Assembly (NCBI GenBank): GCA_964398335.1
Contig: CAYNOF010000902.1
Coordinates: 1-28,267 of the forward strand
Direction of reading: 5' to 3'
DNA length: 28,267 nt
Source: an uncultured Rhizobiaceae bacterium
GTDB taxonomy: Bacteria; Pseudomonadota; Alphaproteobacteria; Reyranellales; Reyranellaceae
Shown: piece after piece, positions 12,488 through 28,267 of the stretch
Position numbering within the stretch: the first letter of the stretch is position 1
Layout of the letters: each line of letters starts with the position of its first letter
Notes under the pieces: model-generated
What the model was told of the DNA's origin: nothing
The model's input: the letters and a program-made list of their open reading frames with translations, nothing else
The model's database searches: none
Made by a program: the position numbers and the translations under genes

Positions 12488-13597
12488 ATGAGGCAACTCA
12501 GCGCTCGGTTCAGGATCGCAGCGCTGGCGGCACTGGCCGCCGGCATCACTCTACCGGCGGCCGAGGCCGCAGATCTCAGGGCCACCGACTATCGGCTCTC
12601 AGGCCCCTACAGCCACGGCAACCTCACCCTCTACATGATCCACGGCAAGCCGGGCGATACCGGCAAGCCGCCGCTCACCCTGCAGGAAGCGCTGCAGCGC
12701 GGCACGGTGCGCGTGCGCGAGACCGGCACGGTGAGCGAGCTGGAGATCGAGAATCTCGGCGACCAGGACGTCTTCGTGCAGGCTGGCGATATCGTGAAGG
12801 GCGGCCAGCAGGACCGCGTGGTGCAGCTCGACCTGGTGCTGGCGCCACGCTCGGGACGCGTGCCGCTGGCGGCGTTCTGCGTCGAGCACGGCCGCTGGTC
12901 GGCGCGCGGCCGCGAGGACGTCAAGCAATTCGCCAGCGCCACCACCTCGCTGCCATCGAAGGACCTGAAGCTTGCCGCGCGCGGCGTGCCGCTGGCCAAG
13001 CCCAACGTGCAGCCCAATCCCGAGCCGCGCGACCCGCATGCGCGCGTGCAGCGCCAGACCGCGCGGCCGGCGCCGGGCGACAGCCAGGGCCGCGTCTGGG
13101 CCGGCGTCGCCGACATGCAGCGCAAGCTGAGCGACACCGTGCAGGCGCCGGTGGCCGCGCCGGCCTCGGCCAGCTCCCTGCAGCTGTCGCTGGAGAACCA
13201 GAAGCTTCAGGCGACGATCAAGGAGACCGTCGCGGCGCTGATGCCGGCGATCGACAAGGAACCCGACGTCATCGGCTACGTCTTCGCCATCAATGGCAAG
13301 ATCAACAGCGCCGAGGTCTACAGCTCCGGCGTGCTGTTCCGCAAGATGTGGCCCAAGCTCCTGCAGGCCAGCGCCGTCGAGGCGCTGTCGGAGCGCAAGG
13401 ACGCCCAGGGCCAGGCGGCGCCGACGGTCGAGGCGGTGCGCGCCTTCCTGGTCGAGAGCGAGGCCGGCAAGTCCACCGACCGCGGCCTGCCCGCCGACAT
13501 GAAGCTCACCACGGTCGACAGCGACAAGGCCGTCGTCTTCGAAAGCCGCAAGGCCGGCGCCGCGGCTCCGGTGCGCCGCAGCTACATGATGAAGTGA
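12488..13597 (+). CDS. DUF6569 / ARPP-1 family protein with N-terminal signal peptide
   Basis: GGGAG ribosome-binding site; signal peptide; ETGTVSEL..EN, GDIVKGGQQDR, FCVEHGRW and Q..VW..V motifs. Confidence 0.75.
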   Translation: MRQLSARFRIAALAALAAGITLPAAEAADLRATDYRLSGPYSHGNLTLYMIHGKPGDTGKPPLTLQEALQRGTVRVRETGTVSELEIENLGDQDVFVQAGDIVKGGQQDRVVQLDLVLAPRSGRVPLAAFCVEHGRWSARGREDVKQFASATTSLPSKDLKLAARGVPLAKPNVQPNPEPRDPHARVQRQTARPAPGDSQGRVWAGVADMQRKLSDTVQAPVAAPASASSLQLSLENQKLQATIKETVAALMPAIDKEPDVIGYVFAINGKINSAEVYSSGVLFRKMWPKLLQASAVEALSERKDAQGQAAPTVEAVRAFLVESEAGKSTDRGLPADMKLTTVDSDKAVVFESRKAGAAAPVRRSYMMK

Positions 13598-14644: not shown

Positions 14645-15019
14645 TCAGCTCGATGGCCCGCCCGTGATGAAGCAGAAGACCTTGCCGTAGGTCTCGCACA
14701 GATGGGTGCCCCGGTCGGGCGTCGGCATGGTGATGATCTTGCTCCTGGGCACCACCAGCCATTCGCGGCCATCCCAGACGCGATAGGCGCCGTCGTCACC
14801 CATATAGGACGGGGCCGGCCGGCAGTCGCCGGTCCGCCCATCGGCCGAGCCGTTGCAGCAGCTCATGCCGGTATCGGGCTGGCGCAGGTCCTTGTACCAG
14901 TCGTGATGCTGGGCGTGACCGTCGCCATGGCGGCCCGAGGGTTGTTGCGCGGCAAGCGCCGCGGGCCACAGGCACAGCATGGCGGCGACGATCGGAATCG
15001 GCTGGCAACGGACGCTCAT
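14645..15019 (-). CDS. Small exported His/Cys-rich hypothetical protein
   Basis: Signal-like N-terminus, then RHGDGHAQHHDWY, SCCN...DCRP...HLC...FCF; GC3-rich codons. Confidence 0.75.
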   Translation of the reverse strand: MSVRCQPIPIVAAMLCLWPAALAAQQPSGRHGDGHAQHHDWYKDLRQPDTGMSCCNGSADGRTGDCRPAPSYMGDDGAYRVWDGREWLVVPRSKIITMPTPDRGTHLCETYGKVFCFITGGPSS

Positions 15020-15088
15020 GGCATGCGCTTTCCCGCTCGGGATCGGCCGCGGCGATCCGCCAGAGTAGCGCCATTCCGCGCCCCGGTC

Positions 15089-16174
15089 TCAGCTTTCGAG
15101 GGGGTGGTTGGTGAACCGAGCGTTGCCCAGGCCAGTGCCGATGGTCAGCACGCCCCAGCGCTTGACGTCCTTCATCGTCGGCACCGCGCTCAGCCCCTGC
15201 ACGACCGCATCGTTGTGCATCACGATCGCCGGCTCATGGTTGCCGATCTTGGGCAGCTTCAGGCTGCTCGGCAGGTGAAACTCGTCGTCCTCCCAGTTGC
15301 CGGGCAGGTTCTGCCCGCCGCTGGTGATCGCGCCCCTCCCGTCGATCAGTCCGGGACAGGCGATGCCGACAAATGGCGCCAGTTTCACCTTGGCGCGCTC
15401 CGCCCGCTCGATCAGCTCGATGATCATCTTTGTCAGCCGCTTCACCGCTTCCTCGCGCGAGGGCTTGTCGTCGGCGTGCCGCCAGTGGCGCAGCTTCCAC
15501 ACCTTGGCCTTGGCGAGGCTGTCCTTCTTGGTGAGGTTGAGCTGCACGATGCCGGCCCGCATGTTGGTGCCGCCGATGTCGACGGCGAGGATCGCGTCGT
15601 GCCCGGCGAGAACCCACGCCGGCGCGAGTTGCACCGAACCCACCAGGCCCGCCTCGTCGGGGTGGTGCGAGACGGCGTTCAGCTCGATCTCGATGCCGTC
15701 GCCGGCCAGGATCATGCCGGCGCGGCCCATCGCCAGGGTGCCGATGTGGCTGGCGCTCAGGCCACCGCCCACGACGATGCGCTCGGTGCCCTTCCACGAC
15801 TTCAGGCGCAGGAAGCGGCGCACCACGCGCGCCAACTCGCCGGCGAACTCCTCGATTGCGGTATGCACCAGGCCAGCCGCCTTCGGATCGTCGCTGGCCA
15901 GCATCTTGTCCATGTCAGCCTTGCGGATGCGCTCCGTGGGCGTGTCGCCGAACGGATCGTCGCCCTGCTTGCGCACCAGCTCGCGCCAATCGTCGAGAAT
16001 GGCGCGAAAGGCGCGGCCGCTGGCGCGGTCGCCGACGAAGCCTTCCTCGTCGCGCAGTTCCTCGTTGTAGGTGTCGACCGTCACCGCCGGCAGCGTCTTG
16101 GCAGCGTGGCCCAGGATGGGGCCGGGTGACGCACTGTCCTGGGCCAATTCCTTCTTGTCCTTCCTGGGCGACAT
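15089..16174 (-). CDS. ROK/sugar-kinase family protein with circularly permuted motif order
   Basis: GAGGG precedes ATG 16174. Motif order is ASG (~res 51), IVVGGG (133), AGLVG, then DIGGT (199), G..CPG, NDA (321) and TIGTGLG (344) at the extreme C-terminus of 361 aa. Confidence 0.85.
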   Translation of the reverse strand: MSPRKDKKELAQDSASPGPILGHAAKTLPAVTVDTYNEELRDEEGFVGDRASGRAFRAILDDWRELVRKQGDDPFGDTPTERIRKADMDKMLASDDPKAAGLVHTAIEEFAGELARVVRRFLRLKSWKGTERIVVGGGLSASHIGTLAMGRAGMILAGDGIEIELNAVSHHPDEAGLVGSVQLAPAWVLAGHDAILAVDIGGTNMRAGIVQLNLTKKDSLAKAKVWKLRHWRHADDKPSREEAVKRLTKMIIELIERAERAKVKLAPFVGIACPGLIDGRGAITSGGQNLPGNWEDDEFHLPSSLKLPKIGNHEPAIVMHNDAVVQGLSAVPTMKDVKRWGVLTIGTGLGNARFTNHPLES

Positions 16175-16248
16175 GGCCAATCCCTCATGGGCAGTCCAAG
16201 GCAACGGCAAATCGAGGTCCCGGTTGCGCCCCCGCCTCCACGATCCTC

Positions 16249-16275
16249 GGAACCTGCCCCAGCGCGCTCCGTTCC
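16249..16275. promoter_or_regulatory. Candidate bidirectional EcfG/sigmaT/RpoE2 (general stress response) promoter
   Basis: Plus strand: GGAAC (16249-53)-N16-CGTT (16270-73), toward katE. Minus strand: GGAAC (16275-71)-N16-GGTT (16254-51), toward the ROK gene. Confidence 0.7.
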
Positions 16276-16310: not shown

Positions 16311-18467
16311 ATGGCGAAGACGGGCAAACCAGCGGCAGCGCGGACCTCCGGCCAGGCGACAGAGAAGGATCCCGATGCTGTCGCGACCGAAACGCCCAAG
16401 ACCGAGCAGCTCGGGCCCTTCTCGCAGGCGCCGGGCGAGCGTCTGACCACCAACCAGGGCGTGGCCGTCAGCGACGACCAGAGCTCGCTCAAGGCACACG
16501 CCCGCGGCCCGACGCTGATTGAAGACATCCTGATGCGTGAGAAGATCACGCATTTCGACCACGAGCGCATTCCCGAGCGCGTCGTGCACGCACGCGGCGC
16601 GGCCGCGCATGGCGTGTTCGAGTGCTACGACGATCTCAGCGCTCTCACCATGGCCGCACCGCTGCAGGGCAAGGGGGTACAGACGCCGGTCTTCGTCCGC
16701 TTCTCGACGGTAGCGGGCTCACGCGGCTCGGCCGACACGGCGCGCGACGTGCGCGGCTTCGCGGTGAAATTCTACACGAGCGCGGGCGTGTGGGACCTGG
16801 TGGGCAACAACATGCCGGTGTTCTTCATCCAGGACGCCAACAAGTTCCCCGACCTGATCCACGCGGTGAAGCCGGAGCCCCACCGCGAGATCCCGCAGGC
16901 AGCGTCGGCGCACGACACGTTCTGGGACTTCGTCTCGCTCACGCCGGAGAGCGCGCACATGCTGATGTGGGTGATGAGCGACCGCGCCATCCCGTGCAGC
17001 TTCGCCACCATGGAAGGCTTCGGCGTGCACACCTTCCGCCTGGTCAACGCCAAAGGCGAATGGCGCTTCGTGAAGTTCCACTGGAAGCCACCGAAGGGCG
17101 TGGCTTCGCTGGTATGGGAAGAGGCGCAACTGCTGGCCGGCAAGGATCCCGACTTCAACCGCCGCAACCTCTTCGAGGCGATCGAACGCGGCGACTTTCC
17201 GGAGTGGGAGCTGGGCCTGCAGATCGTCGAGGAGAAGGACGAGCATGCCTTCGACTTCGACCTGCTCGACCCCACCAAGATCATCCCCGAGGAACTCGTG
17301 CCGGTGCGCCGCGTCGGCAGGCTGGTTCTGAACCGCAACCCCGACAATTTCTTCGCCGAGACCGAGCAGGTCGCATTCCACACCGGCCACATCATCCCCG
17401 GCATCGACTTCACCAACGACCCGCTGCTGCAGGGCCGCCTGTTCTCCTACATCGACACGCAATTGCGCCGCGTCGGGCCGAACTTCCACGAGCTGCCGAT
17501 CAACCGCTCGCTCGCGCCGGTCGACAACAATCAGCGCGACGGGATGGGGCGAACGACCATCGACAAGGGCCGCGTCGCCTATTTCCCCAACAGCCTCGCG
17601 CGCGGCTGCCCGATGCACAGGCCCGATGGCGCCGCGGCCTTCCGCTCGCTGATGATCGAGGAGTCCGGCGGCAAGACACGCGCGCGCAGCCCCGGCTTCA
17701 ATGACCATTTCAGCCAGGCGACAATGTTCTGGAACAGCATGAGCGATTGGGAGAAGGACCACATCGCCGCCGCCTTCGCCTTCGAGCTCAACAACGTCGT
17801 CGATGAGGGCGTGCGCAACCGCGTGATGAACGAGATCCTGGTCAACATCAATCCGGAGCTTGCTGCCGTGGTCTCGGCGCAGACCGGTATCGCCGTCGAG
17901 CCGGCCGGCACGCCCGACAATCCCACCCCCTCGGCGCCGACCCCCTCGGGTCCGCTCAAGCGCGATGCGGTGAAGCTTTCCTCGCCGGCGCTCAGCATGG
18001 ACAAGCCGGCTCCGACGGTGAAGGGCCGAAAGGTCGGCATCCTGATCGGGTACGGCGCCGAGGCTGCGGAGCTGACCGCACTCGTCGACACGCTGGGCAC
18101 GTCCGGGATCGTCGCCGAACTGATCGCGCCGACCGCCGGTCTGTTCACCGATGCCAAGGGCAAGACGGTGAAGGTCAACCGCGCGGCGCCCAACGCGCCC
18201 TCGGTGCTTTACGATGCTGCCCTGGTGCCGTCCGGCGTCGGCGCCGCCCTGGCCCAGGCCGGGCTCGCCATGCGCTTTCTCGCAGAGGCCTATCGCCACG
18301 GCAAGCCGATCGCCGTGGCAAATCCGTCCGCCGACCTGTTGAAGGCCTGCAATTTCGACTCCCTCGACGGCGTCGTGGTAGCCGACCCCGGCAAGCTGGC
18401 CTCGGAACTGGTCGGCGCGCTGGCGCAGCATCGCTTTCCCTACCGTCGGAAGCCGAAGAAGGGGTGA
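16311..18467 (+). CDS. katE: Large-subunit monofunctional heme catalase HPII with C-terminal DJ-1/PfpI-like domain
   Basis: FDHERIPERVVHARG (distal His), VRFSTVAG, DLVGNN and LLQGRLFSY (proximal Tyr) motifs, plus a C-terminal flavodoxin-like domain. GGAG precedes ATG 16311. Confidence 0.96.
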   Translation: MAKTGKPAAARTSGQATEKDPDAVATETPKTEQLGPFSQAPGERLTTNQGVAVSDDQSSLKAHARGPTLIEDILMREKITHFDHERIPERVVHARGAAAHGVFECYDDLSALTMAAPLQGKGVQTPVFVRFSTVAGSRGSADTARDVRGFAVKFYTSAGVWDLVGNNMPVFFIQDANKFPDLIHAVKPEPHREIPQAASAHDTFWDFVSLTPESAHMLMWVMSDRAIPCSFATMEGFGVHTFRLVNAKGEWRFVKFHWKPPKGVASLVWEEAQLLAGKDPDFNRRNLFEAIERGDFPEWELGLQIVEEKDEHAFDFDLLDPTKIIPEELVPVRRVGRLVLNRNPDNFFAETEQVAFHTGHIIPGIDFTNDPLLQGRLFSYIDTQLRRVGPNFHELPINRSLAPVDNNQRDGMGRTTIDKGRVAYFPNSLARGCPMHRPDGAAAFRSLMIEESGGKTRARSPGFNDHFSQATMFWNSMSDWEKDHIAAAFAFELNNVVDEGVRNRVMNEILVNINPELAAVVSAQTGIAVEPAGTPDNPTPSAPTPSGPLKRDAVKLSSPALSMDKPAPTVKGRKVGILIGYGAEAAELTALVDTLGTSGIVAELIAPTAGLFTDAKGKTVKVNRAAPNAPSVLYDAALVPSGVGAALAQAGLAMRFLAEAYRHGKPIAVANPSADLLKACNFDSLDGVVVADPGKLASELVGALAQHRFPYRRKPKKG

Positions 18468-25935: not shown

Positions 25936-27744
25936 TCAGATCGCCTCCTCCCAGCTGCGGCTCAGCCGCATCGCGGAGTTGATCAGGCCGACCATCGAGT
26001 AGGTCTGCGGGAAGTTGCCCCACAGCTCGCCGGTCTCGACGTCGGCGTCCTCCGACAGCAGCCCGAAGGAGTTGCGTCGCGTCAGGATGCGCTCGAACAG
26101 CGCGCGCGCTTCCTCCTTGCGGCCGATCGAGGCCAGCGCATCGACGTACCAGAAGGCGCAGATCAGGAAGCCGCTGGTCATGTGGCCAAAATCGTCGCGC
26201 GTGCCGTAGCGCACCAGCAGATCGCCACGCCTCAGTTCCCTGCCGATCGCCTCGACGGTGGCGGCGAAGCGCGGATCGTCGGCGCGCACGAAGTCGAGCT
26301 CCGACAGCAGCAGCAGGGTGGCGTCGAGATCCTCGCCATCGAAGGTCGACACGAACGTGCCGCGCGCCTTGGACCAGATACGCGGCTCGATCGCCGCACG
26401 CACGCGATCGGCGTTCTCCTGCCAGTACGCCGCGCGATCGTCGCGCCCCAGGATATCGGCGATGCGCGCGAGCCGATCCAGCGCCGCCCAGCACATCACG
26501 GCCGAGAAGGTGTGCACGCTCTGCTTGGTGCGCAGCTCCCAGGGGCCGGCGTCGGGCTGGTCGAAGGTCGCGAGCGCCCGCGCGCCGAGGCGCTCGAGAT
26601 GCGCGAAATGCGCGGCGTGGCCGGAGCGCATCAGGCGCCGGTCGAAGAAGGCATGGGTCGCCGCCAGCACGACGGCGCCGAAGCCGTCGTACTGCATCTG
26701 GCTGACCGCGGCGTTGCCGACGCGCACCGGCCCGTCGCCGCGATAGCCCTTCAGTGCCGTGGCGATGAACTCCTCGGTCGAGCCGTTGCGCGTGATCGAC
26801 AGCAGCGGCGGCAGATGGAATTCCTTCTCGGCCCCGAAGGTGTCGACCACGTTGCCCATGAAGTTGACGTACTCCTCCATGGTGCGCGTCGTGCCGAGGC
26901 GATTGAGTGCGTGCACGACGAAATAGGCGTCGCGCAACCAGCAGAAGCGATAATCCCAGTTGCGCGCGGTGCCCGGTGCCTCGGGGATCGAGGTGGTCAG
27001 CGCGGCGACGATGGCGCCGGTCTCCTCGAAATTGCACAGCTTCAGGGTGATCGCCGCGCGGATCACCGCATCCTGCCAGTCGAAGGGAATCGACAGCGCC
27101 CGCGCCCAGTCGCGCCACCATCCTGTCGTCTTGTCGAGGAACTCCCGCGCCGTGGCATCGACCTCCGACTGCAACGGCTCGTCGGCGCCGAGGAAGAAGG
27201 ACATCGGCCGGTCGACGGCGAACGGCGTCTCGTCGAGGATGTAGGAGATCGGCGCGTCGGTGGTCAGCCGCAGGGTCTGCGCCGTGCCGACATAGCGGAT
27301 ATGGCTGCTGCCGCGCGTGATGTCGGGCGGGCGCGAGCCCAGGCCAAAGACCGGCCGCACCGCGGCGAGCAGGCGCGGCCGGCCGGCGAGAGGCCGCACG
27401 CGGCGCACCATCTGCGGCGGACGGAAGGTGCGCTCGAAGCGCATGAAGCGCGGCGCGAAATCGGTGATCTCCAGCGTGTTGCCGTGGTCGTCGGACACCA
27501 CCGAGACGACGATCGCGGTGTTGTCGACATAGGCCTGCTCGCAGCGCGTCATGCCCACCAGGTCGAGGGCGAAGACGCCGCGCGACGGCGGCGCGTCGCC
27601 GTCGGAGTCGCCGCCATCGATCAGGGAGCAGAAGACCGGATCGCCGTCGAAGCGCGGAAAGCAGCTCCAGACGATGCGCGCCTTGCGATCGATCAACGCC
27701 GCGATCGAGCAATTGCCGATCGCCGCCAGATCCAACGAGCTCAC
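25936..27744 (-). CDS. Glycoside hydrolase family 15 protein (trehalase/glucoamylase-like)
   Basis: GTG 27744 overlaps the otsB stop and follows GGGAGGA. AIGNC...LID, W.C.PRFD, TTSIPE, RNWDYRFCWLRD and GNFPQTYS motifs. Confidence 0.95.
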   Translation of the reverse strand: MSSLDLAAIGNCSIAALIDRKARIVWSCFPRFDGDPVFCSLIDGGDSDGDAPPSRGVFALDLVGMTRCEQAYVDNTAIVVSVVSDDHGNTLEITDFAPRFMRFERTFRPPQMVRRVRPLAGRPRLLAAVRPVFGLGSRPPDITRGSSHIRYVGTAQTLRLTTDAPISYILDETPFAVDRPMSFFLGADEPLQSEVDATAREFLDKTTGWWRDWARALSIPFDWQDAVIRAAITLKLCNFEETGAIVAALTTSIPEAPGTARNWDYRFCWLRDAYFVVHALNRLGTTRTMEEYVNFMGNVVDTFGAEKEFHLPPLLSITRNGSTEEFIATALKGYRGDGPVRVGNAAVSQMQYDGFGAVVLAATHAFFDRRLMRSGHAAHFAHLERLGARALATFDQPDAGPWELRTKQSVHTFSAVMCWAALDRLARIADILGRDDRAAYWQENADRVRAAIEPRIWSKARGTFVSTFDGEDLDATLLLLSELDFVRADDPRFAATVEAIGRELRRGDLLVRYGTRDDFGHMTSGFLICAFWYVDALASIGRKEEARALFERILTRRNSFGLLSEDADVETGELWGNFPQTYSMVGLINSAMRLSRSWEEAI

Positions 27745-28267
27745 GAATCCTCCCTCAGCCCGATCTCGTCCGGTGATGGATGCCCTGAAGCCGCCCAACC
27801 CGCGAGACAGCGACGCAGCACCTCCGGAGTCGCCAGCCGCACGCCGGCGGCCGTCGGCCCCTCGCCGATCTTTACCGACACGCCGCCGTGCCGGTTGACG
27901 GCGGCGAAGGCGGCCTCGTCGGTGAGGTCGTCGCCGAAGAAGACCGGCCGCCGTCCGGCGTAGGGACGCAGCGTGAGGAACTCGTCGACCGCGCCGCCTT
28001 TGCTGACATGCGCGGGCACGATCTCGGCCACCGCGTGGCCATACTGAATGCGATAGGCCGGTCCGGCGGCGCTCAGCGCGCGGTCGACAGTCGACAGCGC
28101 CAGCGCCTCGAGTGCCGGCACCAGCCGCCAGTGGAACGCCACCGAGAGCTGCTTGTCCTCGATCACCAGGCGCGGCTCGTCACGCGCCATGGCCTGCAGC
28201 ACGTCGAGTGCGCGACGCAGGCCGGCGCGATCCGGCGTGTGACCGGGACGCTCGACACCGCCGATGC
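27741..28267 (-). CDS. otsB: Trehalose-6-phosphate phosphatase (HAD), 5' part outside the window
   Basis: The frame is open to the window edge. EDK..SVAFHWR, KG.A and FFGDDLTDE.AF motifs; adjacent to GH15. Confidence 0.88.
   Translation of the reverse strand, partial: IGGVERPGHTPDRAGLRRALDVLQAMARDEPRLVIEDKQLSVAFHWRLVPALEALALSTVDRALSAAGPAYRIQYGHAVAEIVPAHVSKGGAVDEFLTLRPYAGRRPVFFGDDLTDEAAFAAVNRHGGVSVKIGEGPTAAGVRLATPEVLRRCLAGWAASGHPSPDEIGLREDS

Follow-up and report, generated by a model that had tools for sequence, protein, structure and literature searches.

A putative circularly permuted, zinc-free ROK-type kinase with a probable link to the general stress response in Alphaproteobacteria

The stretch of DNA considered here, called the window below, comprises the 28,267 nucleotides of contig CAYNOF010000902.1 (assembly GCA_964398335.1, an uncultured bacterium of the Reyranellaceae) and carries on its minus strand a gene for a protein related to the ROK sugar kinases whose parts follow one another in an unusual order. 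An earlier note on this gene, made from the letters alone, had read it as a circularly permuted ROK kinase, and the translation places the motifs where that note had put them. The motifs of the canonical second half come first, with RASGRAF at residues 50-56, ERIVVGGGLS at 131-140 and EAGLVGS at 174-180, and are followed by those of the first half, AVDIGGT at 197-203, GIACPG at 270-275, HNDA at 320-323 and TIGTGLG at 344-350, the chain ending exactly 11 residues beyond the last of these as had also been claimed. The canonical succession of lobe I, lobe II and C-terminal helix is not the one found in this protein. The window has a G+C content of 65-73%, and the stop-free frame on the minus strand extends further, from 16570 to 15089, with the kinase ATG at 16174 internal to it. 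Two things mark this ATG as the likely start of the open reading frame (ORF): GAGGGA precedes it at a distance of 6 nt, and MSPKKD also opens the sequences of close homologues. At the other end the homologues all terminate about 5-12 residues past GNARFTN.

The two halves respond differently to searches. Pfam ROK (PF00480) matched residues 196-356 to profile positions 2-141 of 294 with 41.3 bits (gathering cut-off 22.9), and the N-terminal half was found by hhalign instead. The NCBIfam model for NanK aligned residues 110-184 with model positions 217-286 of 288; no NCBIfam model came near its curated cut-off, those for BglK, GlcA-type glucokinase, NanK and AlsK included, and the best score was 21.7 bits vs 550 for BglK. 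For profile comparison, 31 diverse full-length relatives were aligned (the diverse alignment) and set by hhalign against the aligned E. coli proteins NagK, Mak and NanK. In native order the match fell into two pieces, residues 195-356 on NagK 2-141 (95.5%, E 1.6e-8) and residues 83-185 on NagK 206-301 (78%, E 1.8e-5), which stand in swapped order. When the columns for residues 189-361 were joined before those for residues 20-188 (de-permutation) the two pieces gave way to one collinear match to NagK 2-301 that spans 276 columns (97.9%, E 5.4e-13), with a score of 95.1 vs 65.7 for the best native piece. Against canonical ROK the N-terminal half alone scored 44.9, compared with a maximum of 20.8 and a median of 12.9 for 200 column-shuffled templates and 15.4 for a reversed template. 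Judged by these profile scores the swapped order is not due to chance, and the claim that the N-terminal 190 or so residues align with the C-terminal part of ROK proteins is borne out. The adenosine motif VVGGG and the terminal D.AGL.G stand in the correct order and at the correct spacing, both in the diverse alignment and in a second one of 60 sequences with 55-100% identity (the close alignment). With phmmer, the de-permuted protein gave an alignment to the Arthrobacter polyphosphate/ATP glucomannokinase (PDB 1woq) that crosses the artificial junction, sets ILGH(23)A on ELGHL and raises the score from 21.9 to 24.1 bits; swapping the halves, a check proposed together with the original reading, thus favours permutation with both programs. 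The Pfam score of the de-permuted single sequence hardly changed (41.9 vs 41.3 bits), since the second half has diverged too far to be picked up when a sequence is searched against a hidden Markov model (HMM).

With the close alignment as input, AlphaFold2 predicted the full-length protein as a single compact fold (mean predicted local distance difference test score, pLDDT, 89.5; predicted template modelling score, pTM, 0.87), with disorder in residues 1-17 only; none of the ten strands that make up the core of the two lobes is missing. Lobe I of the model consists of strands 194-200, 205-211, 224-231, 265-273 and 316-321 and helices 240-260 and 322-328. Lobe II takes strands 339-345 and 349-356 from the C-terminal end of the chain and, from the N-terminal part, strand 31-36, helices 47-70 and 97-122, strand 132-136 (VVGGG), helix 143-158, strand 164-167 and the terminal helix 172-183. 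Between this helix and strand 194-200 runs a linker, with a short helix (186-189) inside, for which the de-permuted alignment has no canonical ROK counterpart. Foldseek, which aligns in sequence order, matched the full-length model to about 175 columns of single-domain ROK kinases at a TM of about 0.35 (human NanK 2yhw/2yhy: TM-score 0.33-0.41, root-mean-square deviation 3.6-4.0 Å), and such partial coverage is as expected if the modelled chain is a permutant. Long Foldseek alignments to tandem hexokinases (408-435 columns) were set aside although they fit a permutation, as a single-domain glucokinase also gave 344 columns. Residues 18-190 modelled alone reached a pLDDT of 74 and a pTM of 0.71; their first strand and last helix lost confidence, which fits a packing of both against parts missing from this model. 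Of the ten structures that best matched the N-terminal half model eight were ROK proteins, and its top PDB matches were E. coli NanK (2aa4), P. multocida NanK (6jdh), the ROK repressor 5f7q, 3r8e and 3vov. These matches covered about 140-150 columns with TMq 0.42-0.45 and marginal E-values near 1e-2. The parts of the gene are given in Table 1.

Table 1. Coordinates of the predicted kinase gene, its parts and its upstream elements in the window
Feature	Position	Strand	Basis and remarks
Complete coding sequence, predicted circularly permuted ROK-type kinase	15089..16174	-	361 codons + stop; ORF, Pfam ROK match, homologues
Variable disordered N-terminal tail, residues 1-19, before the new N-terminus of the fold	16118..16174	-	pLDDT <50 for residues 1-17; unconserved in the diverse and close alignments
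Residues 20-185, putative C-terminal part of canonical ROK	15620..16117	-	hhalign, de-permuted alignment, NanK model, N-terminal half model
His23, probable surviving ExGH histidine	16106..16108	-	invariant in the 60-sequence alignment; aligns with NagK GEFGH and 1woq ELGH
Putative new linker PAWVLAGH, residues 186-193, from old C-terminal helix to old N-terminal strand	15596..15619	-	model and alignment
Lobe I, canonical N-terminal domain, residues 194-335	15170..15595	-	Pfam ROK, hhalign, invariance in the close alignment
Residues 336-361, first two strands of lobe II, phosphate-2 TIGTGLG 344-350 and new C-terminus	15092..15169	-	strands 339-345 and 349-356 in the model
Shine-Dalgarno-like GAGGGA	16181..16186	-	6 nt upstream of the kinase ATG; read from the sequence
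EcfG-type promoter-like site GCAAC-N16-CGTT	16203..16227	-	28 nt upstream of the kinase ATG

The position of the cut follows from the de-permuted hhalign alignment, in which the invariant His23 falls on the histidine of NagK GEFGH and GFVGDRASGRAF (residues 45-56) on GC[IV]E.y.SG.gF, the stretch directly after the zinc motif. Because these two matches place the ExGH histidine and the stretch behind the zinc site, the alignment puts the new termini in the hairpin that leads from strand 2' of lobe II to the ExGH motif, and residues 20-185 correspond to lobe II from strand 3' onward, with the adenosine motif and the last helix. The zinc motif CxCGxxGCxE is present in most, not all, ROK kinases. 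Here no conserved cysteine lies within residues 20-60 in either the diverse or the close alignment, C273 is the sole invariant cysteine of the close alignment, and the tail of the motif survives as GF[V]GDRAS(GRAF). The diverse alignment has no conserved glutamate upstream of His23, so that of the ExGH motif the histidine alone is apparently kept, and the second sugar-binding glutamate is replaced by the invariant pair G48-D49. The earlier note had stated that the ExGH and zinc motif is absent at the cut; for the cysteine ligands and the glutamate it was right, but the histidine probably survives as His23. The sugar pocket is remodelled, and because the zinc cysteines, the ExGH glutamate and the second sugar-binding glutamate are gone the substrate may differ from those of characterised ROK kinases.

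The nucleotide site presents another picture. The ROK/ASKHA nucleotide motifs are all there (DIGGT 199-203 for phosphate 1, TIGTGLG 344-350 for phosphate 2 and VVGGG 134-138 for adenosine) and are invariant in the 60 relatives of the close alignment, as is the catalytic aspartate D322 of the N-D-A motif, with which lobe I ends. Residue by residue, the invariant positions comprise D199, G201, G202 and N204 at phosphate 1, C273-P274-G275, Q288 to W294 in the loop GQNLPGNW (287-294), H320-N321-D322-A323, T344 to N351 at phosphate 2, G136-G138 at the adenosine and, in the N-terminal part with its motifs VVGGGLS (134-140) and DEAGLVGS (173-180), also D173, A175-L177, His23, G48 and D49. As close relatives show no variation in any nucleotide-binding motif or at the catalytic base, we infer that the window protein is a working phosphotransferase, which would move a phosphoryl group to the hydroxyl of a sugar-like substrate. 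In the diverse alignment the catalytic aspartate is lost in about five of the 31 representatives. One divergent clade of this alignment (P0153, P0167, P0171 and P0258, partly P0130 and P0146) has lost DxGGT, the aspartate of NDA and GTG, while VGGG and the terminal helix motif remain; the degenerate-motif members are probably non-catalytic pseudokinase paralogues.

The gene has many relatives. A word-indexed search returned at least 8000 sequence matches (clusters at 90% identity), the best 120 of which are all full-length, 67-100% identical and 342-402 residues long, and an exhaustive search of representatives at 50% identity returned 1281 clusters with E <=1e-3, 197 of them with E <=1e-30. 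Full-length matches are collinear with the kinase down to about 35% identity. A genome scan (made with the closer alignment; the most diverse one was without a conserved stretch) detected relatives in the genomes of at least 585 species, most of them Alphaproteobacteria. The closest among the matches listed is from a Reyranellaceae metagenome-assembled genome (MAG) with 83% identity, and further carriers are Reyranella, many Bradyrhizobium species, Rhodoplanes, Roseomonas, Roseococcus, Muricoccus, Xanthobacteraceae and the gammaproteobacterial Steroidobacteraceae. In databases the relatives go under the names ‘ROK family protein’, ‘predicted NBD/HSP70 family sugar kinase’, ‘glucokinase’ and ‘hypothetical protein’. 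By these matches the swapped order is common to thousands of relatives in soil bacteria, and the proposal of an intact, naturally permuted and zinc-free ROK subfamily is supported by the profile comparison, the shuffle control, the AlphaFold2 fold and the collinearity throughout the family. Several Reyranella and Rhodospirillales MAGs hold two permuted-kinase copies on different contigs (L026/L027, L016/L028 and L029/L034). A distant relative, P0245 (33% identical; L088/L089 8001-8972), lies on a contig with archaeal-type helicase domains, adjoins a potassium-channel gene and is three genes from a TreT-type trehalose synthase; from this context the family would extend beyond Proteobacteria.

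What could the gene be used for? The site upstream of it agrees with G[G/C]AAC-N16-17-CGTT, the pattern found directly upstream of EcfG/PhyR regulon genes. In the EcfG regulon of Sphingopyxis GGAAC and GCAAC are the two commonest -35 boxes, with a -10 consensus of CGTT and N16 spacing, and catalases are direct EcfG targets (PMC7083833). We counted such motifs at 83 family loci and in 770 upstream regions of other genes from the same loci. Strict GGAAC-N16-17-CGTT precedes 13 family genes, with about 0.5 expected; with one mismatch allowed in the -35 box (G[C/G/A]AAC-N16-17-CGTT) it precedes 58, with about 3 expected, that is 70% of the family genes vs 7% of the others (54 of 770). The -35 box is GCAAC at 36 loci, GGAAC at 13 and GAAAC at 8, and the spacer is 16 nt long at 49. 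The Fisher P of 1e-38 for this enrichment is overstated as the loci are phylogenetically related, though spacers do differ between lineages. In most alphaproteobacterial carriers the gene stands alone behind an EcfG-type promoter, and the Steroidobacteraceae carriers, which lie outside Alphaproteobacteria, are without the motif. Genes typical of stress responses, for catalase, OsmC and Usp, are among the neighbours of the kinase gene elsewhere. From the promoters only, we infer that the gene belongs to the general stress regulon and is probably stress-induced; the open-access literature yielded nothing relevant on a ROK or sugar-kinase gene in EcfG regulons. In the window a large HPII-type catalase gene (domains Catalase, Catalase-rel and Catalase_C) is transcribed divergently from the kinase gene, from a probable start at 16311 to a stop at 18467. 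It has a perfect GGAAC-N16-CGTT of its own at 16249-16273 (+), 38 nt before that start, and the 136 bp between the two genes hold two back-to-back ECF-type (extracytoplasmic function) promoter-like sites. The same divergent arrangement of kinase and catalase occurs in a close relative (L004/L005).

Taken together, these data lead us to favour, with a probability of roughly 0.8, a zinc-free, circularly permuted and probably active ROK-type kinase of the ASKHA fold that serves in the general stress response. The chain would begin inside lobe II, just before the ExGH histidine, pass through the rest of this lobe with the adenosine GGG motif and through the helix that normally ends the protein, and then cross the new 8-residue linker into lobe I with the phosphate-1 DxGGT and the catalytic aspartate of NDA. 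Its last two strands would be the first two of lobe II, with the phosphate-2 GTGxG, and the usual two-lobed ATP-binding cleft would be rebuilt in three dimensions. Such a gene probably arose when a ROK gene was duplicated in tandem, the copies fused and both ends were then lost. The protein would then descend from ROK sugar kinases and work like them, with no named subfamily that it matches.

Several observations speak against this reading or narrow it. Pfam found nothing with the N-terminal half alone, and an HMMER profile of this half, run against the PDB sequences, found no ROK protein and only a designed helical bundle at E 6.8. Plain HMMER searches thus fail with it, and the half is therefore recognisable as ROK only by profile-profile and fold comparison. 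That the new termini lie close together would follow from the strand order of the model only. Hexose activity is not assured, two canonical sugar-binding residues being lost, and about one in six of the diverse representatives has a degenerate DxGGT, NDA or GTG (for example AELSG for DIGGT, HNAT for HNDA and GER for GTG), so that part of the family is probably non-catalytic. No gene partner is conserved across the 83 loci; the commonest neighbours (ribosomal protein L21, an acetyltransferase and a hydrolase) lie on the other strand and reflect Bradyrhizobium synteny. Because the pocket is remodelled and the gene neighbourhood uninformative, the protein is a predicted kinase for which no substrate can be named, and the promoter evidence is a motif count on related loci.

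Some of these observations would suit a permuted fold that is no enzyme at all, that is a pseudokinase or a ligand-sensing or regulatory protein. The losses of the ExGH glutamate, the second sugar-binding glutamate and the zinc site point this way, as do the several divergent clades with degenerate DxGGT, NDA and GTG, and a ROK repressor (5f7q) is among the structural matches of the N-terminal half, the ROK family being known to include non-catalytic repressors. We nevertheless regard this as rather unlikely, as all nucleotide motifs and the catalytic aspartate would hardly have stayed invariant in 60 sequences, some of them as low as 55% in identity, if the protein were not catalytic, and as neither Pfam nor the model has a DNA-binding domain, the disordered 19-residue tail being the sole extra sequence. 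Another possibility, with a donor that the earlier note had put forward as an example, is a permuted polyphosphate-dependent gluco- or mannokinase. The best PDB sequence match is 1woq (E 8e-4 in native order and 2e-4 de-permuted, no solved structure being nearer than E 8e-4 in the native-order search), GTG and the histidine are as far apart as in 1woq if the disordered tail is left out of the count, and stress-regulated expression would fit the use of polyphosphate. The margin over the NanK matches is a few bits only, however, and the sugar-binding glutamates of 1woq-type enzymes are not kept here, which makes this specific assignment improbable in our view.

The permutation itself is harder to dispute. 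One could suppose that an unrelated helical N-terminal domain was fused to a truncated ROK N-terminal domain, given that searches at the HMMER level find no ROK in the N-terminal half and that the Foldseek E-value of the isolated half is marginal at about 1e-2. The profile match of this half to NagK 206-301 is far above the shuffled controls, though, the de-permuted alignment is collinear with VVGGG and D.AGL.G properly ordered and spaced, and the preponderance of ROK proteins among its structural matches and the single compact fold of the full-length model agree with this, so that such a fusion appears very improbable. An assembly, rearrangement or gene-calling artefact peculiar to the window would have in its favour the long antisense ORFs that overlap the gene, of which a caller based on G+C at third codon positions (GC3) first preferred one. 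These ORFs, at 14702-16129 (475 aa) and 15297-16070 (257 aa) on the plus strand, share third codon positions with the kinase gene, and for this reason they are, by our reading of the sequence, the usual by-products of 68% G+C and no genes. The same full-length arrangement occurs in thousands of independent genomes and metagenomes, which in effect refutes an artefact and leaves it a negligible chance.

The permuted kinase shares with canonical ROK kinases (NagK, NanK, Mak and human NanK 2yhw/2yhy) the two-lobed ASKHA fold, these being its best structural matches, as well as DxGGT, CPG, the N-L-x-G-x-W loop, N-D-A, GTGxG, the adenosine GGG and the terminal D.AGL.G helix. It differs from them by the swapped chain with the 8-residue linker joining the old termini, by the lack of the CxCGxxGC zinc site and of the ExGH glutamate and by Gly-Asp in place of the second sugar-binding glutamate, and the canonical model PF00480 sees half of it only. 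The likeness to the Arthrobacter enzyme 1woq, a weak sequence match (E 2e-4 to 8e-4), extends to a short hairpin of equal spacing that connects GTG with the (E)xGH histidine, whereas 1woq has the canonical chain order and keeps the ExGH glutamate (ELGH). Neither 1woq nor the polyphosphate glucokinases are known to have the cysteine zinc motif. Other natural enzyme permutants are the cpGTPases of the YlqF/YjeQ type and the permuted DNA methyltransferases, in which the order is swapped and fold and active site are kept; the evolutionary event is of the same kind and the folds are different.

The suspicion that this permutation is undescribed agrees with what we found, as searches of the open-access literature brought up no account of circular permutation in a ROK or ASKHA protein, the one paper with both terms using ‘circular permutation’ only to define kinase fold groups, and as neither Pfam nor NCBIfam has a dedicated family model. 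This leads us to speculate, tentatively and with less than even confidence, that it is the first natural permutation recognised in ASKHA and that it defines a large stress-induced kinase family with a zinc-free pocket and a different substrate or donor (e.g. polyphosphate). If true, one of the most studied ATPase folds would hold a well-populated natural circular permutation, and the ASKHA cleft would tolerate new termini beside the substrate pocket. Thousands of genes, those of Bradyrhizobium and other soil and plant-associated bacteria among them, have been named from a half-length match; such genes deserve a family model of their own and should not inherit a glucokinase function. The EcfG-type promoter at 70% of the loci suggests that the general stress response of Alphaproteobacteria includes a phosphorylation step not yet characterised. 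The finding would be relevant to protein topology, to ASKHA enzymes and to alphaproteobacterial stress physiology.

Some further observations concern fusions and neighbouring genes. Longer ‘fusion’ proteins among the representatives were discarded, being mostly products of frameshift or read-through. The one clear fusion, P0209 (602 aa; L090 1012-2820), combines an inositol-monophosphatase-family domain (residues 19-270, E 2e-32) with a permuted ROK domain of divergent sequence. This protein is known from one sequence only, on a 2.8-kb contig of a low-G+C organism, and the fusion may hint at a substrate or be a gene-calling artefact, which is too thin for a substrate assignment. Trehalose genes lie 4-10 kb away at some loci, and we rejected them as a functional lead as the linkage is loose. 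In the window a GH15/trehalase-like hydrolase is encoded at 25936-27798 (-), about 10 kb from the kinase gene, and in the close relative (L004 1-3615) otsA, otsB and the same hydrolase lie four to six genes from the kinase. An ORF of 124 aa at 14645-15019 (-), 70 nt downstream of the kinase gene, has a signal-peptide-like start and several cysteines but matches nothing in Pfam, and only the three closest loci have it behind the kinase gene (77% identity). At 12488-13597 (+) the window encodes a secreted ARPP-1 domain protein (PF20208, E 7e-58) among enoyl-CoA hydratase and thioesterase genes, and this protein keeps the same position in L004.

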